A DNA stretch of 64,000 nucleotides from NCBI GenBank assembly GCA_034437655.1, contig DAOTTU010000044.1:132093-196092 (forward strand). The letters run 5' to 3'. This document shows, in pieces, positions 9,342 to 44,768 of the stretch (the first letter of the stretch is position 1; each line of letters opens with the position of its first letter). Below the pieces are notes generated by a model. That model was not told where the DNA came from. It saw only the letters and a list, made by a program, of their open reading frames with translations, and did no database searches. Source of the DNA: Anaerolineae bacterium. Its GTDB lineage: Bacteria; Chloroflexota; Anaerolineae; Aggregatilineales; J027. A program made the translations under genes and the position numbers.

Positions 9342-9368
9342 CCATGTTATGGGGTGTGGCAAATGTGT

Positions 9369-28600: not shown

Positions 28601-31600
28601 GCAGTAGTCAATCGTAGCCGTGTTGATTTCAATGTTGACAGGAATTCGTTCCGTCGCCAATGAAACCGTTACTGCACCACGATTCTGTTCGAGGTTCAGC
28701 GTCAGTTCTTCACTGCTATCAAGACCAGTGATGCTGATCGGGGCACTCGTCTCGCCTGTGTCTTCATAGGTTACGGTGTAGGTCGCATCGAGATCATACA
28801 TCGCGCCACCGTTGTTGACGATGGTCGCAACTGGTGCGCCTTCTACACATTCCCCACTGATCGATAGGCTCGGCGGGTTGCCGCAGTTGGTGTTGGCTGT
28901 ATCGCTGAAGGTGTAGCTACCCGGGAAGTCACTGCCTGCTTCGGTGTAAGTCACTGTGATAGAGACGTCACCATAGAAGCCTTCAACAACAATGGGGTCA
29001 GTCGATTCACCTGTTGCCAGGCTGAATTCACCACTCGCAACCGGGTTTTCTTCGGCATTGAATGCATTCACTTCATACGTACCTGTGCCGAACATATCAC
29101 CGCTTGCTTCAGCCTCATTGCTGATGACGAAGCTGGCGACAGCATTGTTGTCACAGGTGCCTTCAACGCTCAGGAGTGGTTCTTCACAGCGTTCATTGTT
29201 GGTGCTGTTGCGTGAATGCTCGTAGCGTGTTCCATTTTCATCCAACACATACAGGATGTTCGGGGTTGCGCGTTCGCCCGTGTAGGTAACGCTCGTGCTA
29301 GCAGCAACTTCTTGAGGACCAAAGGTTGTTTGGCCAATCGAGTTGTTGACGACTTCAACCGTTACCGGGAAGGGGTTCGGGTTGCTGACACGGAACTCAT
29401 GTGTTTCTGAGGTTTCCCAGCAGATTGAGGTAATGGTTACCCGTTGGATACACGGACCAATCGCACTTGAGCTTGCTTCGTTGCCAAAGCCATCGTTAAC
29501 CGTGATGGTCAAGCTACGGTTAAGACCAAAGCTCACGAACGGTACATCAACCGTGGTCTGGTTGCCTTCAAAGCTGAATGCGTCGTTGCTGTCAACTGTG
29601 TTGCCACTTTCATCAGTCACGTTCCAGCTACCGTCGGTAATCGGCGTGTCGCTGGCGTTGGTGATGGTAAAGCGCACAAGGTTTTCGTTGGTCACACAAA
29701 CACCACTGGCACTCAGTTCGGGTGCGGTGAAGGTGTTGGTGATGGTTGCGCTAGCTTCGCCGCCAGCTTCTACCTCAACAGCGCCTTCGCCGGAAACGTC
29801 CCAGGCGGGGCCGGGGTCAGTTTCAGTGACGGTGTAGGTGCCGGGTTGCAGGTCATCAAGCGTCCGTGATTCACCATCGCTCAAGGTGATGGTTTCAGAG
29901 AAGCTGTCTGGACCTGTGATGTTGATCGTAAATTCGTCGTTCAGTTCGAACTCGTTGTCACCGAGATCAACGGACTTGGTGACTGTTAGTGAACCAGTCG
30001 GCGGAGCTTCACAGCGTGCGTCACCACCTGTGCTATCGGCGCGAATACGGCCGGTGCCGGGGTGGCCGGGGCGTTGTTCAGCCTGGAAGTAATAGGCTTC
30101 GTTTTCGCCCAGTTCACGCGAGAAGACCGTTGTTGATTCTCTGCCATTCAGGGCTGGTATGTTGCCTTCTGTGACGACGTTACCGCCTTCGTAGCCATCG
30201 GACCAGACCGTAAAGGGTGCTGTACCCTGCATTGGCGCTTCACCCGTGTTGCGAACACTGAATTCGACCAGATACTGATCCACGCCTGTGTCTTCGTTGG
30301 TTACGATGTTACAGACGTAAGTCACTTCCAGGCTGGAACGGTCCCAGCATTCACCGATAGTTGTGTCGCCGAAGATTTCATACGGCTGTGCCGTAATTTC
30401 GACGCCATTGAACAGCCCGGTGTAGGTTTGCGTGTGAGATTGTTCGCCCGTCAGTTGGACGGTATCAACTGGTGTGCCGTCACTTTCGGTGATGGTGATG
30501 ATGGCCGGCGCATCTTCAGGGATCGGACCACCAGTGTTGGTGATTTCGATAGAGACGCTGCCCGGTGGGCCTTGTTGCACACACTGCGCTTCGACAGACA
30601 GACGCGGTAGTTCTTCGTCAGTGAAGACACGAACGTTGACTGTGCGTTGCAGGGTGTAGGGCAGTTCACCGTCGGTCAGGTTCAACGTCACGGTGTAGGT
30701 TCCGGTTTCAGAGTACACATAGCACTCGCTTGCGGAGCTGGTTTCGATAACATTGCCTTCACCGTCGGGGTCGCCAAAGTTCCAGCCTGTGATGGTGAAG
30801 TTACCGACCACTTCGGCTTCGTAGCAGACCTGTCCTTCGGGGAAGATTTCAGCACCGATAGAACCACTCGCGCTACGTGGTGAGAAAGCGCTGACCGTAC
30901 GACCAGCATCAGCAGTCAAGCCAGTAGAGTTTTCGATGTCCAGCGTAACGTTGTAGTCACCGGGTTGGGTGTATTCGGTGCAGATTTCAGCGGGGATGTT
31001 CGCATCTGTGTAGCTGAGCGAGTCACCGTTGCCGAAATCCCATGTCCATGAAACCAGTTGGTCTTGAATGGTGCTCAAGTCCGTAAAGCAGACACGCAGC
31101 GGGTTGTCTTCAGATGCCTGGCCCGTGCGTGGGTTGGGCGTGAAGTCCGCCTGAATGCTATTGCTTTCGACTACCTGAACATTAACCGAGGCACTCAGCG
31201 TCTGATCATTGTAGGTGATCGGCGCTTCTACTTGAATTTCGTAGTTGCCAGCTTCAGGGAAGGAAACGCTGAAGTTTGGACCACGGCTGGTTGTATCTGA
31301 GCCGACGACTGACCAGCGTGCCTGCGTGAGGTCAACGCTATTGCCAGTGGCTTCGATGTTGAACACTTCATTGCGCAGCGCGACATCTGAACCGATAACG
31401 GTGGCTTCGATGTTGGCACGTGCGACAACGGAGAACTCATCGGTATCCGTATCTTCAATACCAGGGATTGCACCTGTCAGTGTGACTGATTTCGGACCGG
31501 GGGTGTCCCAGCTTACGCAGAGTTCACCATTGTCGCTGCGGCTGGTGGTGGTTGCACCCGTTGTAATGGTGCCGCCAGCCAGATCCCAGTTCCAGGTGTA

Positions 31601-34600
31601 GGCTTCTTCTGGTCCACGAACGCGCGTAGTGTTATCCAGGCAGATTTCTTCGCCTGTAAGGACTGTTTGCGGTGTACCATCGAAACTAACGTCCAGGGAA
31701 TGCCCAGAGTAGATGCCGATTGAGGCTGGACATACGACGGAATCGTCTGCGCTGCTAACCGTGGCATTGAGTGTAAAGATACCAGCGGTGTTCCAGGCGA
31801 CCTGAATCTGTCGGCCACTACCGCTAATGGTACCATTACCACCTGTATCCCATGCGTATTCGACATTAGCTGGTTCAGCGTTGTCCCACACGATACGGTA
31901 GGTGTAGTTGTTGCCGGGGTTGGCGGGTGTACCTTCAAACCCGTCAGCGGCGTTGTCGTCAGCGTCGATGCGGAAGTCTTCACAGGTGAAGCTCTCGCCC
32001 GTGAATTCAACTTCGCGGGTGCCGCTCGAACAGTCGTCAATCAGATTGCCGTTACTATCGGTAACGACCACTGTGTAGCCCACTGCGTAGACTAAGCCAG
32101 CGTCATCAATGGACGATGCGTAGACGTAGTCATCGAAGTCGTTAGGGTTGGTACCTGTCGAGCTGTCATCAACCAGTACGGGGCCATCTTCGGTGATCTG
32201 GAACAGTTGCCAGGTCCAGGTGAAGGTCACGCCTTCGGCATCGAAGTCTAGCTCGTTGGCGCGTTCCGTCCATGTGACGGTGGTGCCAGGTGTAACCAGA
32301 CGATCGGTGCTACGGCGTGGTGGTTGGCAAACCAGTTCTTCGGGGAAACCAACGGTAATCGTAACCGTGTCCGCCGCGCAGTCCAGTACCTGTTCGCCCT
32401 CATCGGTGACCAGTACCTTGACATAAGTGACAGTGTATTCACCCGCGACGAGACCATCGAGGTTGAGCTGGTTGCTCTCAGTCGTGATCACAGTTTCGCG
32501 ATCATCACCTGCAGGGCGTGTAATCGTCCAGCGGTAGCGGATGTCGCCTTCAAGTTCGTATCCACCTGCGCTGCCGGCGGCTGTGATACGTGTACTCTCA
32601 CCGGGCAGTGCATTTCTGTTTGAAACATTATTGATCGGGCAGGTGACTTGACCGTAGCCAACGTCGATAGTTTGACCAACGCCGCCGCTACAGTCTGGTT
32701 CAATACCTGCAACTTCCGCGAGGGTAAAATCACCTACGTAAACATCAACGGTCAGCGTTTGTTCACCAGCCATCCAGGTGACCGTGTAGCTAGAGCCACC
32801 GAGAGAGGCGCTGCCATTTTCTGTCCAGACATAGGTCAGCGGTAAGCCAGCCGGGTTGTTGACGTTGGCGGTGTAAGTGACTTCTTGACCAGCGACGACA
32901 GTGGCGTCCCAACCATCAAAGCTACAACCCGAAATACCACCAACAACTTCAACCGTGATGGAGGGGTTACATTCGCGGCCAGAGGCGGTTTCAACCGTCG
33001 CACTGAGTGTGAATGTGCCTGTTTCATTGAACGTTACATCGGTAGTGCGGTTGCCGGAATTGGCAATCTCGACGCTGTCGTCACCAACGGTCCACATAAT
33101 GTTTGTGACGTCATCACCGTCAAGGCGATTAATCCGGAGTTGATATTCATGTGTCGTACCAACACCGACCGTTGTGGGACCGTTGGGTGTTGGGCAGACC
33201 AGGTCACGCCAATCGATAGTAAAGCTGCGTTCAGCTTCACATAAACCAGCAGTCGCTTCCAGTACAGCACCGTTTTCATCCAGTGCCTGAACGCTGATTG
33301 TGTAGCTGCCGGGGTCGGTGAAGTTCACACCGAGGCTGCTGCCGCTACCAGAGGCGTATTGTGTTGTGCTGCCGTCAAATGTGCGGTTCACGACCCAATT
33401 GTAACTGGTCGGGGTTGCACCTGTAACGTCAAAGCTAAAGTTGCGATTCTGGCCAACGCGACCGGGGTTGTTGCCGTTCAGTACGCAAACAACTTCCTCG
33501 TCAGACACGATGATCTGAACCGCTGTTGCTTCAGAGAAGCCACCGGGGCCAGTCGCCCGCAAGAAGACGTTGTAGTTGCCTGCAACATCGTAAGTGACCG
33601 TAACGGTTTCGCCTGTTTCGTCAAAACCATTGTCCGTATTGCCGTCTACTTCCCATTCCAGCAGCGTGTAGGTGCCTGTGGTCTGGTTGGTAAAGGTAAC
33701 TGTATCACCAACGGTGATTTGGGTTGCGCTGACATCAAATGCAGCGTCTGGTGCGGGGACACCCGAGAACAATGGGATTGTCTGGGTTGTGTTGGAGAAT
33801 TCACCGCCGGGGCCTTCAACGCGCAAGGTTGCGGAATAGCTGCCTTGAACGGGGAAGTCAACACAGGGGTTCGCGACGTCAGCGCTGGCGGGTACAGGTG
33901 GGCCACCTTCGCCGAGGTTAGCAAACGTCCATGTGTAAACCGAAACAGTACCAACGCTCTGGTCAAAGAAGCAAACCTGGTTGGGCGTGCCATCGTCGGC
34001 AAAAGCCGGGTCACTGAGTTCATAGCGGAAGTTGGCGGTAATGTCTTCACCGGGTTCTGCCACGATGATCTGTTGGGTTGCAGTACCTGTACCACCAGGC
34101 CCTTCAACATTCAAGGTAATGGTGTAGGTACCAACCGCAGTGAACGTTACATCGCCCGGGTTCTGACCGTCGGTGGTTGCTGCTGTACCGCCGCCATAGT
34201 TCCATGTCCATGTCTCAACTGGACCACCCGTATTTGTGCCTGCAACTGCTGTGGTAAATTCGCCGTTTTCGTCGAGTTCACCAACAACCGGGTTTGCAGT
34301 AATGCCGGGGATCGGTTTTTCAGCAATCTGAACAGCTTCAACAGAACCGGTGGCGTTAGAACTCCGCCCGTTCTCTGTTGTAACGATCAGCGAAACATCG
34401 TAAATGCCGGGTTCAGTCAGTTCAACCGGGGCAGGGTCGGCAACATCAAAGGTGATGTTGGTACCACCCGGTCCGGTGATCGTCCATGCCCACGACACAA
34501 TTGGGTCGCTTTCGTCGCTGGTGCTGCCGCTGTTGAAATCAACAGTCAATGGTGCTGCACCACGTGTTGGTTCTGCGATGATGCGCGCCACAACAGGGTC

Positions 34601-36316
34601 GAGCGCACCTTGATCTTCGCTGAAGCTCAAGCTACCCGTTGCTTGTAAGGTACGGTCGGCTGCATCGGTACAGTTCAGAATGATGCTGTGATCGCCGAAA
34701 CCGAACGTTTGTGGTGCCAACTCGCGGCTTGTGCTGGCCTGAGTACCATTCACCAGCCATTCGTATTCAGCAACATTGGTAGACAGATTTGTGAACGTGA
34801 CAACAAAATCTGGTGGGTTGCTATCGTCAATACTCATGTCGAAGCGGCACGTCATCGGCGCGACTTCTTCTTCTGTGACGGTAACGCCAGCAGCAGCCGT
34901 TGACGGGATGCCATTATCACCGCGCACAGTGAGTGTCACGGTGTAGGTACCGGCTTCACTGTAAATATGGGTCGGGTTCTGGGCATTGGAGCCATTCCCG
35001 TCGCCAAATTGCCACTGCCAGGAGACGATAGCGCTCTGTGGTGTGGATTGGTCGGTAAATTCAACAGTTCCGTCGGCTCTTACAAAAGCGTCAAAGGAAG
35101 CGTTCGCTTGAGGCAGTGCCTGCGCACCTGTAACCGCACCTTGTCCACCCTGCGCACCAACCGGGGCCCGCGTTGGGGCTGCTTCGGTGGGTTCCTCGGT
35201 CGGCTCTTCAGTAACGACTTCGGTGGGTTCCTCGGTCGGTTCTTCAGTGACAACTTCGGTGGGTTCCTCGGTCGGTTCTTCAGTGACAACTTCGGTGGGT
35301 TCCTCAGTCGGTTCTTCAGTGACGACTTCGGTGGGTTCCTCGGTCGGTTCTTCAGTAACGACTTCGGTGGGTTCCTCGGTCGGTTCTTCAGTAACGACTT
35401 CGGTAGGTTCCTCGGTCGGTTCTTCAGTAACGACTTCGGTGGGTTCCTCGGTCGGTTCTTCAGTGACGACTTCAGTGGGTTCCTCAGTCGGCTCTTCAGT
35501 GACGACCTCAGTGGGTTCGGGGGTTGGTTCTTCGGTTGGCTCTTCCGTTACTACGTCGGGAGCCGATGGTTCCTCGGTCGGTTCTTCAGTGACAACTTCG
35601 GTGGGTTCGGGGGTTGGTTCTTCAGTCACCACTTCCGTTGGCTCTGGTGTAGGTTCTTCAGTCTCTTGAGCGACTTCAGTCGGTTCATCAGTCGGCTCTT
35701 CAGTCGCAGGTGCAATTGGGCAACCCTGACCGTCTACGCCATTACCTTCGTCACCTTGTTGTGGGCAGACATCAACGTCGTCGTTGATACCGTCGGCGTC
35801 CTCATCGGGGTTACAGGGGTCACCAACGTTGTCATTGGCAATGTCGGGACAGGGATCAACATCGTTACCAATACCGTCGCCGTCATTGTCAAGAACGGGG
35901 CAGCCATCGGCTTGTAAACCGAAGCCCTGGTCACCCTGGTCGGGGCAGGCATCGGCATCATTACCAATACCGTCGCCGTCGTTGTCACGGACGGGACAGC
36001 CATCAGCCTGAAGGCCGAAGCCAAGGTCGCCCTCAGTTGGACAGACATCAGCGGTATCGTTGACACCATCGCTGTCCTCATCGGGGTTACAGGGGTCACC
36101 AACACTGTCGTTGGGAATATTCGGACACGGGTCATCACGATTGTTGATGCCATCATTGTCCGTATCCAGGACTTGTTGGGCCTCTGGAGTCGGAGTGTCT
36201 CCGGCGGTACCTATCAATGGTAAGTCATCACCAAAGATCAGGACACCACCAATCAACAGGACGCCAGCCACAATTAGGGCTGCTATCGTCTGTTGATTTA
36301 AGCGTCTTCCTCTCAT
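22649..36316 (-). CDS. giant (4555 aa) N-terminally membrane-anchored cell-surface repeat protein
   Basis: A single uninterrupted 13,668-nt ORF with AAGGAG 8 nt upstream of the ATG. The N-terminus is a basic stretch plus one TM helix (RRLNQQTIAALIVAGVLLIGGVLIFG). In order there follow TSP3-like DxDxDGxxDxxD repeats, a TEEPTE spacer, many PKD-type domains (W.W.FGDG...TYTVTL), an SdrD/Cna-B-like segment (SLTVTKSVD...PGTYTVTET), a Cys-bracketed module array, and PD40 repeats at the C-terminus. Confidence 0.9.
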   Translation of the reverse strand: MRGRRLNQQTIAALIVAGVLLIGGVLIFGDDLPLIGTAGDTPTPEAQQVLDTDNDGINNRDDPCPNIPNDSVGDPCNPDEDSDGVNDTADVCPTEGDLGFGLQADGCPVRDNDGDGIGNDADACPDQGDQGFGLQADGCPVLDNDGDGIGNDVDPCPDIANDNVGDPCNPDEDADGINDDVDVCPQQGDEGNGVDGQGCPIAPATEEPTDEPTEVAQETEEPTPEPTEVVTEEPTPEPTEVVTEEPTEEPSAPDVVTEEPTEEPTPEPTEVVTEEPTEEPTEVVTEEPTEEPTEVVTEEPTEEPTEVVTEEPTEEPTEVVTEEPTEEPTEVVTEEPTEEPTEVVTEEPTEEPTEVVTEEPTEEPTEVVTEEPTEEPTEAAPTRAPVGAQGGQGAVTGAQALPQANASFDAFVRADGTVEFTDQSTPQSAIVSWQWQFGDGNGSNAQNPTHIYSEAGTYTVTLTVRGDNGIPSTAAAGVTVTEEEVAPMTCRFDMSIDDSNPPDFVVTFTNLSTNVAEYEWLVNGTQASTSRELAPQTFGFGDHSIILNCTDAADRTLQATGSLSFSEDQGALDPVVARIIAEPTRGAAPLTVDFNSGSTSDESDPIVSWAWTITGPGGTNITFDVADPAPVELTEPGIYDVSLIVTTENGRSSNATGSVEAVQIAEKPIPGITANPVVGELDENGEFTTAVAGTNTGGPVETWTWNYGGGTAATTDGQNPGDVTFTAVGTYTITLNVEGPGGTGTATQQIIVAEPGEDITANFRYELSDPAFADDGTPNQVCFFDQSVGTVSVYTWTFANLGEGGPPVPASADVANPCVDFPVQGSYSATLRVEGPGGEFSNTTQTIPLFSGVPAPDAAFDVSATQITVGDTVTFTNQTTGTYTLLEWEVDGNTDNGFDETGETVTVTYDVAGNYNVFLRATGPGGFSEATAVQIIVSDEEVVCVLNGNNPGRVGQNRNFSFDVTGATPTSYNWVVNRTFDGSTTQYASGSGSSLGVNFTDPGSYTISVQALDENGAVLEATAGLCEAERSFTIDWRDLVCPTPNGPTTVGVGTTHEYQLRINRLDGDDVTNIMWTVGDDSVEIANSGNRTTDVTFNETGTFTLSATVETASGRECNPSITVEVVGGISGCSFDGWDATVVAGQEVTYTANVNNPAGLPLTYVWTENGSASLGGSSYTVTWMAGEQTLTVDVYVGDFTLAEVAGIEPDCSGGVGQTIDVGYGQVTCPINNVSNRNALPGESTRITAAGSAGGYELEGDIRYRWTITRPAGDDRETVITTESNQLNLDGLVAGEYTVTYVKVLVTDEGEQVLDCAADTVTITVGFPEELVCQPPRRSTDRLVTPGTTVTWTERANELDFDAEGVTFTWTWQLFQITEDGPVLVDDSSTGTNPNDFDDYVYASSIDDAGLVYAVGYTVVVTDSNGNLIDDCSSGTREVEFTGESFTCEDFRIDADDNAADGFEGTPANPGNNYTYRIVWDNAEPANVEYAWDTGGNGTISGSGRQIQVAWNTAGIFTLNATVSSADDSVVCPASIGIYSGHSLDVSFDGTPQTVLTGEEICLDNTTRVRGPEEAYTWNWDLAGGTITTGATTTSRSDNGELCVSWDTPGPKSVTLTGAIPGIEDTDTDEFSVVARANIEATVIGSDVALRNEVFNIEATGNSVDLTQARWSVVGSDTTSRGPNFSVSFPEAGNYEIQVEAPITYNDQTLSASVNVQVVESNSIQADFTPNPRTGQASEDNPLRVCFTDLSTIQDQLVSWTWDFGNGDSLSYTDANIPAEICTEYTQPGDYNVTLDIENSTGLTADAGRTVSAFSPRSASGSIGAEIFPEGQVCYEAEVVGNFTITGWNFGDPDGEGNVIETSSASECYVYSETGTYTVTLNLTDGELPYTLQRTVNVRVFTDEELPRLSVEAQCVQQGPPGSVSIEITNTGGPIPEDAPAIITITESDGTPVDTVQLTGEQSHTQTYTGLFNGVEITAQPYEIFGDTTIGECWDRSSLEVTYVCNIVTNEDTGVDQYLVEFSVRNTGEAPMQGTAPFTVWSDGYEGGNVVTEGNIPALNGRESTTVFSRELGENEAYYFQAEQRPGHPGTGRIRADSTGGDARCEAPPTGSLTVTKSVDLGDNEFELNDEFTINITGPDSFSETITLSDGESRTLDDLQPGTYTVTETDPGPAWDVSGEGAVEVEAGGEASATITNTFTAPELSASGVCVTNENLVRFTITNASDTPITDGSWNVTDESGNTVDSNDAFSFEGNQTTVDVPFVSFGLNRSLTITVNDGFGNEASSSAIGPCIQRVTITSICWETSETHEFRVSNPNPFPVTVEVVNNSIGQTTFGPQEVAASTSVTYTGERATPNILYVLDENGTRYEHSRNSTNNERCEEPLLSVEGTCDNNAVASFVISNEAEASGDMFGTGTYEVNAFNAEENPVASGEFSLATGESTDPIVVEGFYGDVSITVTYTEAGSDFPGSYTFSDTANTNCGNPPSLSISGECVEGAPVATIVNNGGAMYDLDATYTVTYEDTGETSAPISITGLDSSEELTLNLEQNRGAVTVSLATERIPVNIEINTATIDYCNPPALVITGQCDTENQVPTASITNNGGQMLDSTTVTVTYEDGGNPQTITIDPLGPDGSVDISDQLSNARGALTLVLDPEFAAAETPTTVSLENCNESEIGLNVQCDGTNVIGEITNNGGPLLEDLTYTITYEYPDANGQTTVSGTVEFEEGRQVLDFSNERGDVTLSIAELQLTASTENCFPPDLTLSGVCEGTSPVASIVNDGGPAQISGTYTVTYSEGTANDNVEASFGPLNAGEDFPIPNLRNDLGDVSITMAYPDGEQSDEITIENCFPPQPDFSLACVDGTDVILTLDNTNGGPMFEELTLNVTYANGPNDTVPFQLDAGETDTITLANDLGDVTVSIESELLTRTADVTSCNPPEITFSAQCDAERDLGVVTVVNSGGPMFEPEFINVEYENGETSQIEFQFDDAGSQTFDLDPNKGSATVSYGEQEAQVVPYCNPPALDITHQCVEVDEGQSFVEVTVTNSGGAMLEEQVIDVLYEDGETAQLPFTLGEGGETSFDLDANRGGATLTLAQDGFDPIIVPVPYCEPPDLQLTGQCVDDAPTAVVVNNGGQMLEGTTVSVEYSAGDPTTIDIPALGPGEEFPLTDQLSDQFGNVSLSLEGQRSSIDLENCNESNVSLNVQCEGTNLVGSIDNLGGPMLDVLSYTVDYQFGEQDFSNEIQLGEGESEVLDLTNTLGTVTVSFDGTEISASAENCFPPEPVLEGVCEGTTPVASILNSNGPTHLDGSYTITYEVGDPVEGTFPPLTAGEEFPIDGLSNERGDITITLQYPAEGRDDVTTVTDEISIENCFPPQPDFNLVCEEGTDIVLTLDNSQGGPMLDPIVLTVDYEVGDDTTIDFQLDQGETERIVLNNDQGNVTVGAFDPALTKTLDVTDCNPPVLRAEPTCLTDEGAPVPAITVFNDGGPMYSPAEYPWNATYAFDLPAESGMVSVPAGESVTLEFSNLGGAVSFEMPDFGIEASATTDNCYPPELRVEAQCDGTAAYVEVFNDGGPMAEPDVVMVDYAQDDEGAIEFTFELGAESSQRFDLDNDKGAITVMHAGTETIIDVENCNPPSLTFDAYCEGNTPIAEVTNNGGPMFSEETLNIDYEVGDDTTISFMLDEGETETYTLNNDQGNVSVTLNSLEETIDVENCFPPELALDGVCEGNTPVVTLTNSGGPIITPVSLTVEYETGDTATIEGIQLDADSNARFELDNDKGDVTVTLNDGSEEQRSISIDNCFPPELALSGVCDTELNAGIITVVNNGGPMLASETVEVTYQTGETASFDFQLDQAGTETFQIDSDKGTATASLTYSTDAGVLDQTIEFDNCFPPEVSASAVCEETEPVISITNDGGPFIDPTSYVWSVVYQTGVTAEGEITVAPGATETVTLSNEEGSFTFSIPELGINIERDTCWPPDLTASGVCVPETGEATFTVVNTGGPTIEDVTYTLSDETGTIESGVISLDNGEEFSTTTVTPGTLTFEILEFSETVTTICFEEADIEIAGFCNDDASATFTIFNRGGDMALSDDEVSWQVFNQDNVQVLEGSVVLGEDAQEMIFVPFVEGTFALEIQLASGPSARTTVADCVPETPTTATPVAEVPDVCGEIIFDEYGFPIVDMDPAGCDDTPLTRAPWTPLSIGEATCPDWLIYHTNTTGNWEIFRLGGDDEFPDDNPNLSQGDETPRIHDFAPSRSPDGQWIAFASVRDGNWEIYVAPVDNVNSGNIIQRVTYNDVAVDIDPVWSPGADADGGNYVVYESARDGQYDLYLLDVRTGMERQLTDSPASDINAFWHPDGTKLLFQSDRDRAGIFQIYELDLSAEDENGFPVTTRLSDGEGNDRDAMYSNEGDRILFRRTASPDSSVIYVMDSDGQNVEMVSDPAGFASNAVWSPDDEIFAYQSNLDGDLDIYAYEFESEVTRLITENDIPDYSPTWYCESTEVVFTSDVDSTEERLDANIFSTNALPIDADAIIVDEEANRLTTAEELDQHPQNSPAEENASRGGE
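22700..23715 (-). other. C-terminal TolB-like PD40 beta-propeller region of the giant protein
   Basis: Repeated blocks SPDGQWIAFASVRDGNWEIYV, PVWSP...YVVYESARDGQYDLYLLD, FWHPDGTKLLFQSDRDR..FQIYELD, GDRILFRR...SVIYVMD and AVWSPDDEIFAYQSNLDGDLDIYAY. Boundaries are approximate. Confidence 0.7.
23900..28900 (-). repeat. array of ~19 tandem ~85-100-aa Cys-bracketed modules (consensus N-C-[FNYW]-P-P-x-L-x(3)-G-x-C ... N-x-G-G-P-M ... V-x-Y)
   Basis: The module boundary motif recurs about every 260-290 nt. On the plus strand it appears as ...GG[CT]GGGAAGCAGTT..., for example near 24415, 24665, 24935, 25195, 25440, 25690, 25965, 26220, 26505, 26760, 27010, 27280, 27530, 27785, 28060, 28320, 28600 and 28880. 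Boundaries are approximate. Confidence 0.75.
30620..35110 (-). other. PKD / Ig-like domain region of the giant protein
   Basis: At least 12 recurrences of the PKD signature pattern (F.D.S...I.SW.W.FGDG....NP.H.Y...G.Y.V.L.V). Boundaries are approximate. Confidence 0.6.
35174..35707 (-). repeat. 36-bp (12-aa VVTEEPTEEPTE) coding tandem repeat / acidic Pro-Thr-Glu spacer
   Basis: There are nine near-perfect 36-bp units at 35183-35506, flanked by degenerate units up to 35707. The plus-strand unit is CTTCGGTGGGTTCCTCGGTCGGTTCTTCAGTGACAA or similar. Confidence 0.9.
35717..36166 (-). other. thrombospondin type-3-like Ca-binding repeat region (5 DxDxDGxxDxxDxCP units, with an internal duplication)
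   Basis: DTDNDGINNRDDPCP, DEDSDGVNDTADVCP, DNDGDGIGNDADACP, DNDGDGIGNDVDPCP and DEDADGINDDVDVCP. The block GFGLQADGCPV.DNDGDGIGND occurs twice. Confidence 0.7.
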
Positions 36317-36789
36317 ACAAAGCGCTCCTTAAAAAATGAACTGAATGGGATGAAATGCAGAAACAGTTGCCTGACTGGCGTTACGTTCACAGTACTTGTG
36401 TCGCAGCGTCAGGGCAAAAAGTGTTGGATGAATATTGTAGATATAGTGGTGAGAATGATTGATTTTCAATATGCCGCGTAATGTTACTAAAGGTCCCATA
36501 GTGAATCATCTGTTTCTAGCAATGTTTCCAATGGGTAGTATACGCCGAAGCGTGGAATGTGCAAATTTACATGCCATCAAATTTATAAGGTTTGAGAATT
36601 GGTTTGCGTCTTAACAGGTTTTGGCCCGGCTTAGAGAACACGGTAATGATTCTATAGCGCGGGGAAAGTGGCAGTAGCAAAACCTTCAGTGCAGCGTGGC
36701 AAGATACTCCCAGGTTGAAATACACCTGACAGTAACTATTGGTTTTACGTAAATACGTTCTTATGTTACATGTGCGCCTGGGCTTACGC

Positions 36790-36818
36790 TTGCCTGCCAA
36801 CCATGACTACGCTACAAT
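36790..36818 (+). promoter_or_regulatory. candidate sigma70-type promoter of the T-box leader
   Basis: TTGCCT (36790-95), a 17-nt spacer, then TACAAT (36813-18), about 35 nt upstream of Stem I. Confidence 0.45.
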
Positions 36819-36852
36819 GTCAAAACTACAAAATAGTCATAAATCTGACTGA

Positions 36853-37124
36853 TGCGAAGACGAAAACGCGATTGTTCAAGTGCGGCATTGTTAGCGACCC
36901 GGGGATGGTGTAAGCCCGGGGATGTCATGAACAATTATCCTTTCTGAGTACCGACTTGAACCCATGCTACGTGCTGTGGTGTGACAGTAGATGTCGGCGG
37001 AAGCTGCCCGTTATCGTAGCCAAACCGAGCGCTACAGTATTATGCTGTAGAACAAGGGTGGTACCGCGAGAAATCGACACTCTCGTCCCTTAATTATATT
37101 TGAGGGCGGGAGTTTTTTGTTTGC
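36853..37124 (+). promoter_or_regulatory. T-box riboswitch leader (transcription-attenuation type), probable Ile (AUC) specifier
   Basis: Stem I spans 36853-36950. It has a K-turn (UGC-GAA-GA / GA-GUA), an AG bulge AGCGA (36893-97), and a distal hairpin CCCGGG-GAUGGUGUAAG-CCCGGG. The F-box CCGUUA is at 37008-13 and Stem III CUACAG/CUGUAG at 37032-50. The T-box sequence AAGGGUGGUACCGCGAG is at 37054-70. CGAGA (37067-71) can pair with UCUCG (37081-85) to form the antiterminator, alternative to the terminator. Confidence 0.85.
37080..37124 (+). terminator. T-box leader intrinsic terminator
   Basis: CTCTCG(T)CCCT-loop-AGGGCGGGAG forms 10 bp with a 1-nt bulge, followed by TTTTTTGTTT. Confidence 0.8.
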
Positions 37125-37212
37125 GTATCACATCACATATAAAGCTGTATAGGATCAAAGCAGCACATTATCTGGTTAGCCTGGATACAATGACAAAGGA
37201 TAGTAGACCGTA

Positions 37213-37698
37213 ATGGGAGACCCCCACGCTTTTGCCGTTCGAAGCGCTACACAACAAGATCAAGACGCACTCGTGCAACTCTGGCTCGAAGTCATGGAAG
37301 AACGTGCAGTGATGGATGTTCGCGTTCGTCTGGCTGAAGATGCACAGGCTCATTGGGGCCGGCAACTACAGGCGTGGATCACTGCTCCCCGCGCTGAAAT
37401 TCTGGTTGCAGATAAGGCGTCTAAACTCATTGGCTACGCTATCGCCCTGATTGAAGAACGTCCCCTGTACTATTATCAACAACGCGTCGGTGTCATCGTT
37501 GACATGGGGGTTGACGGGCACGCGCATCAAGGTGGCGTTGGTACGGCATTGCTCGAAAACATCAAACCCTGGTTCAAATCACAAGGGGTTGATTTGATTG
37601 AGGCACCGATCATGCAGCTCCATCCGATGGCACAGGCCTTCTGGCGTGCAAAAGGTGCTGTCGAAGTGATGACCACGTTCTGGTATCGGTTGAAATGA
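37213..37698 (+). CDS. GNAT-family N-acetyltransferase
   Basis: 161 aa with the acetyl-CoA binding motif HQGGVGTALL (Q/R-x-x-G-x-G/A) and typical GNAT beta4-alpha3 spacing. It is the first gene after the T-box terminator. Confidence 0.8.
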   Translation: MGDPHAFAVRSATQQDQDALVQLWLEVMEERAVMDVRVRLAEDAQAHWGRQLQAWITAPRAEILVADKASKLIGYAIALIEERPLYYYQQRVGVIVDMGVDGHAHQGGVGTALLENIKPWFKSQGVDLIEAPIMQLHPMAQAFWRAKGAVEVMTTFWYRLK

Positions 37699-38705
37699 GA
37701 CTACTACGCGATATTCGATTCTGGCTCGGGACAGACCGCATCAATATTATTCTCGGCGCACTGCTAGCGACTGGTATCGGGAGTATCGTACTCGGGCTTG
37801 TTGCCGACGGTGGCTGGGTAACGACTGTTCAAAGCCTGTTGGCGATTACCTTTATTGCGGTCGCTGTTGTGGTGATCGGCTCACGGATGGGCCCGGCCGG
37901 GCGGCGGCGCTTGTTTTTCACGCTCGGGCCGTCTTTGGGCTTAGCCGTGTTGGCATTCGTGCTGCCTGCTAACTTTTTTCCGTTTGTACTGGGTGGAGCC
38001 TTTGGCTGGATTCTGGCAGCGCAGTTTTTTATGCAAGAACCAACCCTGATGGAATACCGCGAGGCTGTACGCCACATGCGCAAGCAAGAATACAAAGAAG
38101 CGATCAAGGTCTTGAACGGTCTGGTGAAAGACGAGCCAGGCAACCTTGAGCATCTTGATTTCCGCGCACGGTTGTTCCAACTGAACGGCAATACAAAAAA
38201 CGCCATGACGGACTTCGAAAAAATGATGGAAGTTGCCCCCGATGATCCACGTGCATACACAGGAATGTCTGGTATCTATGTACGTAAAGGTGATTTTGCG
38301 ACGGCACGCGAGTACAGCGAAAAAGCCTTTCTGCGCGAACCAAATGACCCCGCCGCACCACATGATCTCGCCATGATTGAAGATCGGCTTGGGAATAGTG
38401 AGGCTGTTGTTGATTACATCGAAGAAGCCAAAAAACTTGGGTTGCGGGAGCAACGTCTGTTGCTGTTGGCCCATTTGTGGCAAGCCCGCGCTTATCATCG
38501 ACTTGGTGAGCTGGAAGATGCTGACGCTGCACTTGCCCAGATGAAACGCTATCGTCAGGGGCTCAGCGAGTGGCAACGTATATTAGAAGATACGCAGGCG
38601 AAGACAGTCCGCAAGATCTACGAATATGACATCAGCGTTGCCCAGCGGGCTTTTGACTTCAAACTCGATAGTGCTGACAAGTTATTCGAAAGTGAAACCT
38701 CGTGA
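37695..38705 (+). CDS. membrane protein with 4 N-terminal TM helices and C-terminal TPR repeats
   Basis: 4-nt overlap with the GNAT stop (ATGA). The TPR-like repeats run from YKEAIKVLNGLVKDEPGN through AMTDFEKMMEVAPDDPRAY to ATAREYSEKAFLREPNDP. Confidence 0.7.
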   Translation: MRLLRDIRFWLGTDRINIILGALLATGIGSIVLGLVADGGWVTTVQSLLAITFIAVAVVVIGSRMGPAGRRRLFFTLGPSLGLAVLAFVLPANFFPFVLGGAFGWILAAQFFMQEPTLMEYREAVRHMRKQEYKEAIKVLNGLVKDEPGNLEHLDFRARLFQLNGNTKNAMTDFEKMMEVAPDDPRAYTGMSGIYVRKGDFATAREYSEKAFLREPNDPAAPHDLAMIEDRLGNSEAVVDYIEEAKKLGLREQRLLLLAHLWQARAYHRLGELEDADAALAQMKRYRQGLSEWQRILEDTQAKTVRKIYEYDISVAQRAFDFKLDSADKLFESETS

Positions 38706-39502
38706 TTTTGCACGATCCTCGTCTACGGGCGGCGTTTATTGCCACAATCGTTCTTAGCGGGCTGATTGTGTTGGTGACGCAGGTCGTCGGTGAAGAAAAC
38801 AGTTTCCCGATAGTGGTGTCGCTCATCGTCTTTATGTCGCTGTTGCAGATGGGCTTGCTGTTTTTGTGGAATGGTGACACTGCCAGCGGTCCATTGTTGG
38901 CCGCACGTCGCTATTATATCGACGGTCGCTTCGAGGCTGCCGCCGAAGTACTAGAAAATACCGAGCTTGATACTGCCAGTGCCGAGGTGCTGTCACTTTT
39001 AGGCAACACTTACCGTCAATTGAAGCGGCTTGACGAATCTGAAAAGTTGTTGCGCACGGCGGTTGAACGTTTTCCAGAAGACAAGCTGGCACTGTATGGC
39101 CTGGGCAAGACACTCCTGGTTCGTGGACACTATGACGAAGCTGCTGTGATGATCGAACGGGCGTTGGCCCATGACGGCCGCAAAAACATTCTGGTTGAAC
39201 TGACGCAGGCGTTGCACTATGCCGAGCGGGATACAACTGAGGTTGTCCGCCGTGCCAATCAAGCGGCGCGTGTATTGAATTTGGAACAATATCGAACATT
39301 ATTTGTCAATTATGTACTGTACAATCTGGCCGACGATAATCAAGACGTTGCAGCACACATCATCCGTAACAATCGCGAAGGGCTGGCATACTGGCAATCA
39401 GAAGCACGTCGCTTTGCTGATCAAGACTACGGGCGTCGTGTGGCTGGCGATGTCATGGAGATTAAAGCAATCCTAGAAGAGGACACTTCTAACCATGAGT
39501 GA
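38702..39502 (+). CDS. membrane protein with 2 N-terminal TM helices and TPR repeats
   Basis: 4-nt overlap with the upstream gene (GTGA). The TPR-like repeats include LLGNTYRQLKRLDESEKLLRTAVERFPED and ALYGLGKTLLVRGHYDEAAVMIERAL. Confidence 0.65.
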   Translation: MILHDPRLRAAFIATIVLSGLIVLVTQVVGEENSFPIVVSLIVFMSLLQMGLLFLWNGDTASGPLLAARRYYIDGRFEAAAEVLENTELDTASAEVLSLLGNTYRQLKRLDESEKLLRTAVERFPEDKLALYGLGKTLLVRGHYDEAAVMIERALAHDGRKNILVELTQALHYAERDTTEVVRRANQAARVLNLEQYRTLFVNYVLYNLADDNQDVAAHIIRNNREGLAYWQSEARRFADQDYGRRVAGDVMEIKAILEEDTSNHE

Positions 39503-40001
39503 TGCACAACGGCCAATCGAAATTGACGCACGAGATACACAGGGCTGTCTGGATAGCTGGGTGGTCCGTATTGTTGGCGGGGTTATATTGATAGGGCTCT
39601 TAGTGACCCTGATCGGCTTTGTGGCGTACAGCGATACACGCAATGATCGCAGCCAACCAATCGATATTGAGCATTACCCGGGCATTGAGATGGTCTCTGA
39701 ACGGGTGATTTCAAATGGCATTTCTGTTGAAGAACATGTCGGTTACTACGAAAACATGAGTTCTACCTTGCTGACAGACATCGAAGCCTACTATCAGCGC
39801 CAGCTTGACACCTGTTTCCGGCTTTCGGAAGACCTGAGCGACCCGGCCGCCTTCCATACCATTATTTGTGAAATTGACCGCTCACACGATTGGCTGGGAT
39901 TTACACAGGTTGCACGCCTCGAAATCCGTCCAGAGCGCGACAACAGCGGCGATTGGACAGGTGAATTGGTCGTTAAAGTTGATCAAGTCTGGGAAGGATG
40001 A
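39495..40001 (+). CDS. hypothetical TM-anchored protein (paralog of next gene)
   Basis: 8-nt overlap with the upstream gene. One TM helix (VVRIVGGVILIGLLVTLIGFVAY) is followed by a ~110-aa domain. Confidence 0.6.
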   Translation: MSDAQRPIEIDARDTQGCLDSWVVRIVGGVILIGLLVTLIGFVAYSDTRNDRSQPIDIEHYPGIEMVSERVISNGISVEEHVGYYENMSSTLLTDIEAYYQRQLDTCFRLSEDLSDPAAFHTIICEIDRSHDWLGFTQVARLEIRPERDNSGDWTGELVVKVDQVWEG

Positions 40002-40567
40002 GTCTACATATGGCAGATACACCGACTCAGCAGCAGCCGATGGACGCGCCCTTACCCACTGACGCAGCCGATGCCAACCAAGATGGTGTTAGCACTGGTG
40101 CTGAAGGGCGTGGCGGTTGTTTGCCATATATTCCGCCGTGGGTTGCCATTGCATTTGGTGCGGTGGCCCTACTCGCAGCGGGAATCATCATTAGCCGCAT
40201 CGGTGGGCCGCTTGCAGACTTGATCTTGAGCGAGGCGCCAGAAATACCCGTGCCGAATGACGTACGCCTGCTGTCTGAACAAGAGGATACCAGCTATGCA
40301 CGCCATGAATGGTTGTACACGACAGACCAATCTGGCTGTGAGGTTGCCCGTTTTTATCTTGATCAAGGCGCAACATGCCGCTTTCAGCCTTTTGTGTGTA
40401 ATGAGGCTTTCGAACAGAATGATCTGTCTGAGGTGAATTTCTTCAATGTCGCGACCTGCACACGTTCGGAGACAGATAACGTTACCGGGTCAAGCTGGCA
40501 GGTATTGATCAGTAGTGGTCACCGTGAAGACGGCCGCACACGCTTTCGGATTTACTTGTTCGAGTAG
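39998..40567 (+). CDS. hypothetical TM-anchored protein (paralog of previous gene)
   Basis: 4-nt overlap (ATGA). One TM helix (WVAIAFGAVALLAAGIIISRI) is followed by a ~110-aa Cys-containing domain. Its FYLDQGATCRF aligns with YYQRQLDTCFRL of the previous protein. Confidence 0.6.
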   Translation: MSLHMADTPTQQQPMDAPLPTDAADANQDGVSTGAEGRGGCLPYIPPWVAIAFGAVALLAAGIIISRIGGPLADLILSEAPEIPVPNDVRLLSEQEDTSYARHEWLYTTDQSGCEVARFYLDQGATCRFQPFVCNEAFEQNDLSEVNFFNVATCTRSETDNVTGSSWQVLISSGHREDGRTRFRIYLFE

Positions 40568-40736
40568 AGGAAATAGGACGTCAAGTTGTGCTTAGTGGAT
40601 TTAGTACAGTTAGTACAGGAGGTGTCGCCGTGACGCTGACAGGATTTCAACTGTTGGCTGAGCGGGGGATTATTTGCCTGAAGTCATCCCGCCCGGTCAA
40701 ATACCTGTGATTTTATAACGCTCTGAAGGAGAACAC

Positions 40737-43700
40737 ATGTTTAAACCCGTTTCGTCAAAAGTAGAAATCCCTGCATTAGAAGCCGAAATCCTTGACTATT
40801 GGCGCAACCATGACATTTTCAAGCGCACGATGGACGAGCGCAAAGATGGCAAACAGTTTGTCTTTTACGAAGGGCCACCGACTGCCAATGGTCGCCCCGG
40901 TAGCCACCATGTATTGTCGCGTGCCTTCAAGGATATCTTCCCCCGCTATCGCACCATGACGGGGCATTATGTCCTGCGCAAAGGTGGGTGGGACACACAC
41001 GGACTCCCGGTTGAAATCGAAGTTGAGAAACAGCTTGGCATCAAAGAAAAGTCTGAAATCGAAGCCTATGGTGTCGCTGAGTTCAACCGAAAGTGTCGCG
41101 AGAGCGTGTTTACCTACATCGAAGAATGGAACCGCCTGACAGAACGTATCGCCTTCTGGGTAGACCTGGACGAAGCCTATGCCACGCTCACCAATGACTA
41201 CATCGAGAGTGTGTGGTGGTTGCTGCAACAGCTCTGGGACAAAGGCTTGTTGTATCAGGGCTATAAGGTTGTGCCTTATTCGCCCACGTCAGGAACAGCG
41301 CTGTCTAGCCATGAGGTTGCGCTTGGCTACCAGGAAATTGACGACCCCAGCATCTATGTGCGCTTTAAGGCCAAAGACGAAGAGAATGCATATTTCCTTG
41401 GCTGGACGACGACACCGTGGACACTGCCAACCAACATTTGCCTGACGGTTGGTGAAAACATCGACTACGTTAAGTTGAAAGGCCGTGTGTCAGCAGAGGC
41501 ACCAGAAGAAATAATTTACATTGCGAAAGCACTGGCAGATTCGGTGCTGGGGGCAGTTGTCAAAGAAGATGGTGGCTATGAAGTCGTTGCTGAAATGCGC
41601 GGGAGCGACCTGGTCGGCCGTCACTATGAACCGCTGTTCAACTACTTTAACGTGGACGAAAGCAAAGCTTTCTTCATCACGACCGGGGATTATGTCAGCG
41701 TGGCAGATGGTACGGGTATCGTCCATACTGCGCCGGCCTTTGGTGTTGACGACATGGAAACTGCCAAGAAAAACAACCTGCCAGTCTTCGTCTCCGTGAA
41801 TCCAGATGGACGCTTTAAGGATGAAGTCGAGTTGGTAGCAGGGATGTGGTTTAAGGACGCTGACAAGGTCATCTCACGAGATTTGCGTGAACGGGGACTC
41901 GTCTTTCGCCTGACACAGTTTCGGCACAATTACCCGCATAACTGGCGCGACAAAACGCCGCTGATGTACCTGGCCCGCGATACCTGGTTCATTCGTACGA
42001 CTGAATACCGTGACCAGCTTGTAGACTTGAACCAGACCATCAACTGGGTGCCAGAACACTTCAAAGAGGGGCGCTTTGGCAACTGGTTGGCGGATGTGAA
42101 GGACTGGGCACTCGGCCGTGAACGCTATTGGGGAACGCCGCTCCCGGTCTGGGTGGCAGATGACCCCGAGGTGAATCACATGGTCTGCATCGGGAGTGTG
42201 GCCGAACTTGAAGACAAAACCGGCCGCGACCTCTCAGAATTCGACCTGCACCGCCCTTACGTTGATGACTTGACGTGGGAAGAAGAAGTAGATGGCAAGA
42301 CGGTCACCATGCGCCGTGTGCCAGAAGTCATTGACGTCTGGTTTGATAGTGGCGCTATGCCCGTCGCGCAGTGGGGCTACCCGGCACACAACCATGAAAT
42401 GTTTGAGGCACAATTTCCGGCCGACTACATCTGCGAAGCGGTAGACCAGACACGCGGCTGGTTCTATAGCTTGCACGCGATTGCGACAATGGTATTTGAC
42501 TCGGTTGCCTATAAAAACGTCATCTGTCTGGGGCATATCATGGCTGACGATGGCTCGAAGATGTCCAAGTCGAAGGGCAACACCGTTTCCCCGTGGGAAG
42601 TGTTAGACAAATATGGCGCGGATGCGATGCGCTGGTACATGTTTAGTGCCAGCCAACCCGGTGACCAGACCCGTTTTGGGTGGCGAGACATCGGCGCTGA
42701 GCGCGAAATCCCCGGCATTGCGGAAGTCTTGCGCAACTTCTACCTGACACTGTGGAATGTCTACAGCTTCTTTGTGAGCTATGCCAACATTGACGAGTTC
42801 GATCCCAACAGCGCCCCCGTACCTGTCGCAGAACGTGATTTGCTCGACCGTTGGGTGCTGAGCGAGTTACATACGCTGGTGCGAGACGTCACTGAGTCTT
42901 ATGAAACGTACGACGTCATTGGTGCCACCCGTCCAATTGAAGCATTTGTAGACGACCTCAGCAACTGGTATCTGCGGCGCTCACGGCGACGGTTCTGGCA
43001 AAATGACGACGTCCGCGACAATTTAGCTGCACACCAGACGCTCTATGAATGTCTATTGACGCTCTCAAAGTTGATGGCACCGGCTATGCCGTTTCTGTCC
43101 GAAGAATTGTTTCGTAACCTGACGCAAGATGATGTGCCGAGTGTGCATCTAGCCTTCTGGCCAGAATATGACGAGGCCGTGATTGACGAAAGCCTGAACC
43201 ATCAAATGGCGATGGTCAAACAGGTTGTTAGCCTTGGGCACGCCGCCCGCAACAAGGCCGAAATCCGTGTGCGCCAGCCGCTGCAAGAAGCTGCCTTTGG
43301 TGTGCCCTCCCAGGAAGACCCCGCCGCTATCTTGCAAATGCAGGACATGATCGCCGACGAACTTAATGTCAAAGAAGTGCGTGTGCTTGATCTCGCTGAC
43401 AGTTCTGGCATGGTTAACTATGCGCTGAAGCCCATTGACACACTCGGGCGCGAACTGCGTGGCGACTTCCCGCCGGTGCGTAAACTACTTGTGGGTGCGG
43501 AGGGTGAACAGGCGAAAACGTGGGGGCAAACGCTTTTACGTGGCGAGAATATCACCGTTGAAGCTAATGGTAAAACGTTTGAGCTGACGCCAGAGCAGGT
43601 CATCGTCAGCCAATCGGGGCGTGAAGGCTTTGCTGTGGCGGAAGACCGGGGCTACATGGCAGCGCTCACCACTGACCTCAGTGAAGAATTGGTGCAGGAG

Positions 43701-43975: not shown

Positions 43976-44010
43976 AACCCGATGGCCATTGGCTGTCGGG
44001 TTTTTCTTTT
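43976..44010 (+). terminator. rho-independent terminator after ileS
   Basis: AACCCGA-13 nt loop-TCGGGTT followed by TTTCTTTT. Confidence 0.75.
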
Positions 44011-44094: not shown

Positions 44095-44679
44095 ATGACT
44101 GATGAATTGTCGCCACGCGAGCGCATTTTACAGACCACAGCCGAATTGCTTGAACGACAGGGCTATCATGCCACTGGTCTGAATCAGATTGTGAAAGAAA
44201 GCGCTTCTCCCAAGGGCTCACTCTATCACTATTTCCCTGATGGCAAGGAAGAGATTGCAGCATCAGCCATTGATGTGATGTCAACACAGCTTGCCGAGCG
44301 TTTGCGCACTGAAATGGCGTCCATCGAAGACCCGGCTGAGGCTGTACGAACCACAACATTGCGCATTGCCGACCACATCCAACAATCAGCGTGCCAACGT
44401 GGTGCGCAAACAGCCGCCGTTGTGCTGGAAACAGCCCATACCAGTGACCGGCTCCGCGAGGCTTGTGTGTTATCTTACGAAGCGCGGCGTGAAGTGTTCG
44501 AAGATAAGCTGCTGCAAGGCGGCTTTGAGGCTGAAAGAGCGAATCAACTGTCGGTGCTGATTATCTCGGCGATTGAAGGTGCCATTATCCTGACCCGTAC
44601 TTATCAAAGTATCGAGCCACTACAACACACTGCTGAACTACTATTCCGCACAATTAAAAACGAAACCCCAACCACCTAG
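44095..44679 (+). CDS. TetR/AcrR-family transcriptional regulator
   Basis: N-terminal HTH: RERILQTTAELLERQGYHATGLNQIVKESASPKGSLYHYFP. Confidence 0.85.
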   Translation: MTDELSPRERILQTTAELLERQGYHATGLNQIVKESASPKGSLYHYFPDGKEEIAASAIDVMSTQLAERLRTEMASIEDPAEAVRTTTLRIADHIQQSACQRGAQTAAVVLETAHTSDRLREACVLSYEARREVFEDKLLQGGFEAERANQLSVLIISAIEGAIILTRTYQSIEPLQHTAELLFRTIKNETPTT

Positions 44680-44729
44680 CATCATGTCCGATATCTGCTA
44701 TCTGCCACCAGATGGCCGGTATTTTATGC

Positions 44730-44753: not shown

Positions 44754-44768
44754 TGAGGAGAGCAAGTT

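Follow-up and report, generated by a model that had tools for sequence, protein, structure and literature searches.

A probable tRNA-Ile T-box riboswitch heading a predicted six-gene operon that ends in ileS in Anaerolineae-type Chloroflexota

The 64,000-nt stretch of DNA analysed in this study (the window) comes from an Anaerolineae bacterium of the Chloroflexota (order Aggregatilineales; assembly GCA_034437655.1, contig DAOTTU010000044.1, positions 132,093 to 196,092 of the forward strand), and all coordinates below are positions within it unless a related locus is named. It contains a non-coding leader followed by six genes on the + strand, which encode a GNAT acetyltransferase, two membrane proteins with tetratricopeptide repeats (TPR), two single-pass membrane proteins (hyp4 and hyp5) and, in the last position, a type 2 isoleucyl-tRNA synthetase (IleRS, gene ileS). 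An initial annotation, made from the sequence alone, had described a complete T-box riboswitch in this leader, with the GNAT gene first downstream and ileS five genes and 3.6 kb further on, and the gene calls and domain matches bear out this order (Table 1). Our comparative analysis indicates that the leader element is very probably a Class I, transcription-attenuating T-box for tRNA-Ile(GAU) and that it serves as the leader of a six-gene operon ending in ileS.

Table 1. Features of the T-box leader, the downstream genes and the spacer before ileS
Feature	Coordinates	Strand	Basis or remark
Candidate sigma-70-type promoter, TTGCCT-17-TACAAT	36790-36818	+	9/12 match; positional conservation
T-box leader RNA, Class I architecture, transcriptional type	36848-37118	+	RF00230 match; covariation
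Stem I	36854-36949	+	Model alignment, covariation
Kink-turn (K-turn), GAAGAC	36856-36861	+	Sequence and model alignment
Stem I helix, GAAA / UUUC	36862-36865 / 36941-36944	+	Model alignment, covariation
5' side of specifier loop, ACGC; part of compact 4x4 internal loop	36866-36869	+	Covariation of adjoining pairs
AG bulge, AGCGA	36893-36897	+	Sequence and model alignment
Distal loop, GAUGGUGUAAG	36904-36914	+	Sequence and model alignment
Specifier AUC (36937-36939), then C36940	36937-36940	+	Codon slot of model; 20-leader alignment
Stem II domain with conserved GAA and AGUA	36951-36999	+	Model alignment, conservation, covariation
F-box, CCGUUA	37008-37013	+	Model alignment, conservation
Stem III	37032-37050	+	Model alignment; five pairs with compensatory changes
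T-box sequence, AAGGGUGGUACCGCGAG	37054-37070	+	Sequence and model alignment
Antiterminator with T-box bulge UGGUACC (37059-37065)	37055-37090	+	-9.0 kcal/mol; 20-leader pairing test
Intrinsic terminator, 14 bp with one bulged U (37079-37113), then U6 tract to 37118	37079-37118	+	-19.6 kcal/mol
GNAT acetyltransferase, 161 aa, first gene	37213-37698	+	PF00583, E = 9e-9
Membrane TPR protein 1, 336 aa, about four hydrophobic segments then TPR repeats	37695-38705	+	Domain search, hydrophobicity
Membrane TPR protein 2, 266 aa, two hydrophobic segments then TPR repeats	38702-39502	+	Domain search, hydrophobicity
hyp4, single-pass membrane protein, small domain with conserved cysteines	39495-40001	+	hyp5 paralogue
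hyp5, single-pass membrane protein, paralogue of hyp4	39998-40567	+	hhalign probability 99.4%
Short-ORF leader proximal to ileS	40618-40710	+	Comparative alignment, folds, nhmmer
Shine-Dalgarno-like GGAGGUG	40618-40624	+	Then 5-nt gap to GUG
Hairpin P1	40628-40665	+	GUG start in 5' arm; -17.7 kcal/mol, z = -3.15
26-codon ORF, peptide MTLTGFQLLAERGIICLKSSRPVKYL	40630-40710	+	GUG start 40630, stop 40708-40710
Ile codons AUU AUU	40669-40674	+	In frame in the short ORF of the window
ileS, type 2 IleRS, 1071 aa, last gene	40737-43952	+	TIGR00392, 944 bits; tRNA-synt_1, Anticodon_1, DUF5915
Operon terminator, 12-bp stem then U-rich tail	43976-44002	+	Best-scoring terminator-like site from leader to ileS end

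The covariance-model search that the initial annotation had suggested for the leader was run with Rfam over 36700-37250 and gave a significant match to the T-box family RF00230 at 36848-37093 (+ strand; 83.5 bits, E = 1.2e-18), covering model positions 1-219 of 219 and thus substantiating the claim of a complete T-box. The curated gathering cut-off of this family is 93 bits, and because the score falls short of it, a scan of the whole window at gathering thresholds returned nothing at the site, its only hits being a tRNA-Sec, a tRNA and a 6S RNA. Nine relatives (L001-L008 and L039) likewise gave full-length T-box matches, at 70-93 bits, and just one of the ten T-boxes of the clade, that of the window included, reached the gathering score. 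The positions first assigned to the K-turn, AG bulge, distal loop, AUC, F-box, Stem III and T-box sequence were all in agreement with the sequence and the model alignment.

For the comparative analysis, 20 orthologous leaders were aligned; two groups among them are nearly identical (L001 and L009; L012, L013, L014 and L022), and the number of independent lineages is therefore nearer 10-12 than 20. The RNAalifold consensus recovered Stem I, Stem II, Stem III and the terminator, with compensatory changes in 38 of its 50 pairs. The AGCGA and GGUG motifs of Stem I are invariant, as are the GAA and A-UA of the Stem II domain, the inner helix of which covaries. In the antiterminator, 99.5% of cells are paired across the 20 leaders, compared with 47-71% when the partner is slid, and an A-U to G-C swap occurs in five leaders. 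The terminator re-uses the 3' strand of the antiterminator, so that the two are mutually exclusive, and it is the more stable (-19.6 versus -9.0 kcal/mol). In every orthologous leader a terminator helix is present and runs into four to seven consecutive U. The pair of competing helices in the initial annotation was thus found to be present and conserved, but its terminator of 10 bp had to be revised to 14 bp with a bulged U. As both the antiterminator and the terminator with its U6 tract are conserved, the element is predicted to act by transcription attenuation, and a translational T-box, acting by sequestration of the Shine-Dalgarno (SD) sequence, is ruled out by the U-tracted terminator of every leader. 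The called start in L001, at a distance of 19 nt, is probably the product of a gene call that was extended too far.

The specifier was assigned from the same alignment. The A, U and C at 36937-36939 are invariant in all 20 leaders. The two bases preceding them vary, the one directly before being U, G or A, which excludes a UAU register, and the base that follows is C in 18 leaders and A in the other two, which excludes a UCC register. In addition, AUC occupies bases 2-4 of the specifier bulge, counted from its 3' end, which is where the TBDB convention places the specifier. Judged by this conservation, AUC is the specifier, and the UAU, UCC, AUU and UUA registers are excluded. The Ile (AUC) specifier, which the initial annotation had called probable while allowing for UAU and UCC and naming covariation for a different specifier among orthologous leaders as a ground for refutation, is upheld, with the operon itself encoding IleRS.

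That annotation had also remarked, correctly, that the specifier loop lacks the usual AGUA/GAA S-turn and that the codon is followed by C. The alignment offers a structural account of the former. Just 5' of AUC, three nucleotides are base-paired to the positions where AGUA would normally be found: G70-A71-U72 pair with A34-U35-U36 (alignment columns 26-28 with 101-103), adjoining the 5' side of the specifier loop, and each of these three pairs is Watson-Crick or G-U in 18-20 of the 20 leaders, with four or five standard pair types. On this covariation, the S-turn is replaced by a helix of three pairs that leaves a 4x4 loop, ACGC/AUCC; in the window the site of the replacement is 36866-36872 with 36934-36940. 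A missing GAA signature has also been reported among streptococcal glyQ T-boxes, with a purine after the codon in every case examined (PMC11404447).

Related loci were collected from the contexts of GNAT homologues (n = 8), from a genome search with IleRS, and then with nhmmer and tblastn. In all eight GNAT contexts, a non-coding stretch of 450-780 nt is followed by GNAT, two TPR genes and one or two hyp genes, and ileS comes next wherever the contig reaches that far; a full-length Rfam T-box lies upstream of GNAT in all eight, at 70-93 bits. The order T-box, GNAT, TPR, TPR, hyp, (hyp), ileS was found in the window and in 17 distinct related Anaerolineae-type loci, nine of them from the genome search, in which the IleRS is 69-78% identical, and it is kept at GNAT identities down to 37%. 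Three further loci carry variants of this arrangement: L015 has T-box, TPR, TPR, ileS and is without GNAT, L039 has a single 248-aa gene between the T-box and ileS, and in L036 the same AUC-C T-box stands 30 nt before ileS. In 21 more distant Anaerolineae/Phototrophicaceae genomes (IleRS 53-57%) no T-box was found, and ileS is preceded by two GNAT genes, an AlaXM-type editing protein, a domain of unknown function (DUF) and two or three TPR proteins. Poribacteria and Rhodothermales loci have none of these features.

The extent of the transcription unit was examined at both ends. The candidate promoter upstream of the T-box is at chance level as a single sequence, matching 9 of 12 consensus positions. 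Of the 20 leaders, 16 have an equivalent TTGATT/TTGCCT-17-TAnAAT promoter, with at least 9/12, at 10-35 nt upstream of Stem I, and two more have one at 8/12; an extended motif, CTACGCTA(C/G)AAT, is common to the window and several orthologous leaders. Downstream, the four junctions between the first five genes of the operon overlap, and hyp5 and ileS are separated by 170 nt. An internal sigma-70 promoter in this spacer is not supported: no promoter-like site was found on its + strand in the window, and none is positionally conserved before ileS in 23 relatives, where the same scan finds one upstream of most T-boxes. A terminator scan from the leader to the end of ileS found no terminator after hyp5. 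The only convincing one after the leader lies just past the ileS stop codon, the other terminator-like sites being weak, inside coding sequence and at chance frequency. A second T-box directly upstream of ileS was also sought, and a permissive Rfam scan of 40400-40900 gave none. Beyond the operon, the gene after ileS in L002-L005 is lspA (Peptidase_A8), as it is in E. coli, whereas the window has genes for a TetR regulator and a DrrA-like ABC ATPase at this place (44095-45716).

Taken together, the family match, structure, covariation, specifier conservation and conserved gene order are observed, and from them we infer tRNA binding, a response to charging, co-transcription and a start site. 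Transcription would probably start at about 36825 from the candidate promoter, and Stem I of the nascent leader would offer AUC to the anticodon of the tRNA. The NCCA end of an uncharged tRNA would then pair with the UGGU at 37059-37062 and stabilise the antiterminator, allowing RNA polymerase to read on, whereas with charged tRNA the more stable terminator would form and transcription would stop at about 37118. Read-through would yield one operon from 37213 to 43952, comprising the genes for GNAT, the two TPR proteins, the two single-pass proteins and IleRS, with its end at the terminator behind ileS; the five upstream genes would be co-regulated passengers or partners of ileS. The T-box precedes GNAT because GNAT heads a conserved operon ending in ileS, and the L036, L039 and L015 variants, together with the only convincing terminator after ileS, mark it as the leader of ileS. 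Thus, of the unusual placement stressed in the initial annotation, the distance to ileS and the leading position of GNAT stand, but the element has not been recruited to an unrelated gene. It represents an ordinary mechanism in an unusual gene arrangement.

Several observations weigh against this interpretation. The Rfam score of the window T-box is below the gathering cut-off (83.5 versus 93), and two usual T-box features, the specifier-loop S-turn and the purine after the codon, are absent. No tRNA-Ile gene occurs in the window or in 40 related loci. UGGU would fit an A73 discriminator, which is usual for bacterial tRNA-Ile; three relatives have UGGA in its place (L001 7946-7960, L006 7918-7932 and L009 at about 6541), a sequence that would either call for U as the discriminator base or fail to match the usual A73. 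In addition, the 170-nt spacer between hyp5 and ileS contains a conserved element and could carry a non-consensus promoter or modulate ileS independently.

Two of these points lend themselves to different readings. Lacking the S-turn landmarks and with a pyrimidine after AUC, one leader taken alone would be ambiguous, and the specifier might be sought in another register (UAU for Tyr, UCC for Ser, or AUU/UUA), with a tRNA other than tRNA-Ile(GAU) being sensed. Such a reading is extremely unlikely, as only AUC is invariant among the 20 leaders with U, G or A before it and C or A after it, the three bases 5' of it take part in covarying pairs, and IleRS is a product of the operon. The spacer, for its part, raises the alternative that the T-box controls the genes from GNAT to hyp5 alone and that ileS forms a separate unit driven from these 170 nt. 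The length of the spacer and its strongly conserved block speak for a separate ileS unit, as do Group B relatives, which have such a spacer before ileS without any T-box. We nevertheless consider it improbable, given the scans that found neither a promoter nor a terminator between hyp5 and ileS, the gap of merely 13 nt at this junction in L005, the same T-box directly on ileS in L036, and a specifier for Ile that makes obvious sense only for ileS.

Within this operon, the five upstream genes may be more than passengers. They might work together with IleRS as one functional module, such as an acetyltransferase/TPR complex at the membrane whose target is Ile, Ile-tRNA or the quality control of translation. 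This would explain why five genes are placed under Ile-tRNA control, and it accords with the gene neighbourhoods: all eight GNAT homologues with a context examined sit in the operon, GNAT, TPR and TPR stay next to ileS at IleRS identities of 53-57% even where there is no T-box, and the cluster of the T-box-less group adds a full-length AlaXM-type aminoacyl-tRNA editing protein and a second GNAT. The AlaXM-type protein hints at a link with translation. On the other side, there is no functional annotation to build on, the nearest solved relative of GNAT being of unknown function and hyp5 having no recognisable fold; ileS occurs without the module in L036 and L039, and without GNAT in L015; and the order could be synteny inherited within one class. 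On balance, a functional module is possible but doubtful.

GNAT itself has only 15 homologues among 5.8 billion proteins, the named ones being from Chloroflexota metagenome-assembled genomes (MAGs), and against solved structures it matched only BH1408, a protein of unknown function. A tie to NF040702, the NCBIfam family of IleRS with a fused GNAT domain, was examined and dismissed, as GNAT has no match to it and the IleRS of the window matches the synthetase part only. The best match of this IleRS, at 77%, is to a Chloroflexi MAG. Neither hyp4 nor hyp5 has a Pfam or NCBIfam match; their family carries invariant cysteines and is very narrow, with four relatives of hyp5 in 5.8 billion proteins. 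The fold of hyp5 was not recognised in an AlphaFold2 model of pLDDT 68, built on a 5-sequence alignment, for which no Foldseek match against the PDB surpassed E = 0.05 and a TM score of 0.27. The longer cluster of the relatives without a T-box can be seen, for example, in L026 at 4679-9781 (and in L017-L040), where a full-length AlaXM-type alanyl-tRNA editing protein, a second GNAT, a DUF and membrane TPR proteins are encoded.

The conserved element of the hyp5-ileS spacer is a leader with a short open reading frame (ORF). Its core, the strong SD sequence GGAGGUG followed after 5 nt by GUG or AUG, was found in 34 distinct loci, always 106-178 nt before ileS; nhmmer recovered exactly one copy per locus, in Chloroflexota only. 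The start codon is buried in hairpin P1, for which z is -2 or lower in 10 of the 12 lineages tested, down to -5.2, while in L023 (z -0.80) and L025 (z -1.33) it is indistinguishable from shuffles. Across 20 sequences, 8 of the 13 pairs of P1 show compensatory changes, and none of 500 shuffles reaches the observed covariation score. In L019, where the start is AUG, its P1 pairing partner shifts from C to U. In our reading of the folds of the window and L003, a second hairpin overlaps with P1. In Group B, a second covarying hairpin, P2, extends from inside the short ORF to just before the SD sequence of ileS.

Behind the buried start, in frame, comes Arg-x-Ile, whose Ile codon is an invariant AUU. 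This AUU lies 24, 33, 36, 39 or 51 nt from the start, depending on the lineage, and thus always at a multiple of 3 and after an Arg codon, except in one clade of six loci (L012, L013, L014, L022, L037 and L041; about 9839-9990), which has a distance of 38 nt and hence an out-of-frame AUU. Ile accounts for 13% of the residues of the short ORFs; the corresponding figures are 2.2% for the other two frames, 9.5% for hyp4 and 4-6% for the remaining five operon proteins. Most of the short ORFs have one to four Ile codons, some of them a single one, and that of L020 has seven. In the out-of-frame clade, a long-range helix that was not observed in other lineages can form between the SD-like GGAAGGUGUC and GACACCUUCU, the latter lying directly before the ribosome-binding site of ileS. 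Neither a terminator with a U tract nor a clear SD-sequestering helix was found for the short-ORF leader, and it has no match to an Rfam family; we found no report of such a leader in the literature. The possibility that the conserved NAUU of the spacer mimics the tRNA-Ile anticodon was rejected, since N takes all four bases.

The most attractive reading is that the short-ORF leader may be an Ile sensor that works by ribosome stalling, although this is unproven because of the missing U-tract terminator, the lack of a clear SD-sequestering helix and the loss of the frame in one clade. Most genomes with the GNAT block keep both elements; among the loci as a whole, 14 have the leader and the T-box, 20 the leader without the T-box, five the T-box without the leader, and one neither. 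It is conceivable, but rather less than probable, that in Anaerolineae-type Chloroflexota ileS is under two Ile sensors, a tRNA-sensing T-box and a ribosome-sensing leader peptide, whose distribution would record the replacement of one sensor by the other, and that the set of GNAT, TPR and, in relatives, AlaXM proteins is a functional partner of IleRS.

When compared with known systems, the window element is closest to the Class I transcriptional T-boxes of the B. subtilis tyrS type (RF00230; for class definitions see PMC10482949). It shares with them the long Stem I with K-turn, internal specifier loop, AG bulge and distal loop, a Stem II with GAA and AGUA, the F-box, Stem III, and an antiterminator with a UGGN bulge competing with an intrinsic terminator. 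It differs from them in its score below the Rfam cut-off, in having three covarying pairs for the S-turn, and in the C after the codon in 18 of 20 leaders. Streptococcal glyQ T-boxes without the specifier-loop GAA (PMC11404447) similarly lack the canonical S-turn signature, but they have a purine after the codon and belong to another specificity and another lineage, and in the window the S-turn is replaced by a covarying helix. Ile T-boxes on ileS have been documented in Chloroflexi (Dehalococcoides; PMC2494555), and no T-box report was found in the literature for the Anaerolineae-type lineage. As in the ileS T-boxes of Dehalococcoides, Deinococcus and Firmicutes, an Ile specifier regulates an isoleucyl-tRNA synthetase here, but five unrelated genes (3.5 kb) stand between the leader and ileS. 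The actinobacterial ileS T-boxes of Classes III/IV also regulate ileS with an AUC specifier (PMC1262725; PMC10482949). They are translational, however, with a short Stem I lacking the distal platform, the specifier in the apical loop and a sequestered SD sequence, in contrast to the full Stem I and the terminator with a U tract found here.

Precedents also exist for the gene arrangement. In some T-box operons an aminoacyl-tRNA synthetase is encoded by a later gene, such as cysS or asnS in second place; like that of the window, these operons have a non-synthetase gene first and the cognate synthetase further on (PMC2494555). Their intervening gene usually belongs to the same amino-acid pathway, whereas the five genes of the window have no evident isoleucine link. 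For the short-ORF leader, the nearest parallels are the leader-peptide attenuators known for pheST, trpS and leuS (PMC1262725). As in pheM-pheST of gamma-proteobacteria and in trpS and leuS of Streptomyces, a short ORF with its own SD sequence stands before a synthetase gene, and outside the out-of-frame clade it carries in-frame cognate codons. Unlike those attenuators, the leader described here has few Ile codons, no U-tract terminator and a start codon buried in a hairpin, its AUU is out of frame in one clade, and a T-box is present in the same operon.

Elsewhere in the window, an ORF of 4555 aa (22649-36316, - strand) is transcribed away from the T-box operon, in the divergent direction; its product has repeats, with PKD, PD40, TSP3 and PT domains, and probably sits at the cell surface. 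The idea that ileS is a self-resistance copy in an antibiotic gene cluster was discarded, as this upstream ORF is a PKD/PD40/TSP3 repeat surface protein and not a nonribosomal peptide synthetase or polyketide synthase. The window also contains a tRNA-Sec gene (10344-10439, - strand), a tRNA-Pro gene (55176-55249, - strand) and a 6S RNA gene (55283-55461, - strand), the 3' end of which lies 34 nt upstream of tRNA-Pro on the same strand.

The T-box described here is a further example of a known riboswitch with minor structural deviations, and the short-ORF leader and the GNAT/TPR module merit follow-up. With one of ten members reaching the cut-off, Rfam-based pipelines would leave the T-boxes of this clade, and with them the regulation of an essential synthetase, unannotated, and a TBDB-like tool looking 500 nt downstream would assign the T-box of the window to GNAT. 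Because its T-boxes lack the specifier-loop S-turn and have a pyrimidine behind the codon, the clade provides natural variants for testing how the specifier is presented to the tRNA. The operon would put five genes that have no functional assignment under Ile-tRNA control, which suggests Ile limitation as a condition under which to study them. If the short-ORF leader senses Ile by ribosome stalling, these genomes would make it possible to compare directly, for one signal at one gene, how an RNA and how the ribosome acts as the sensor.

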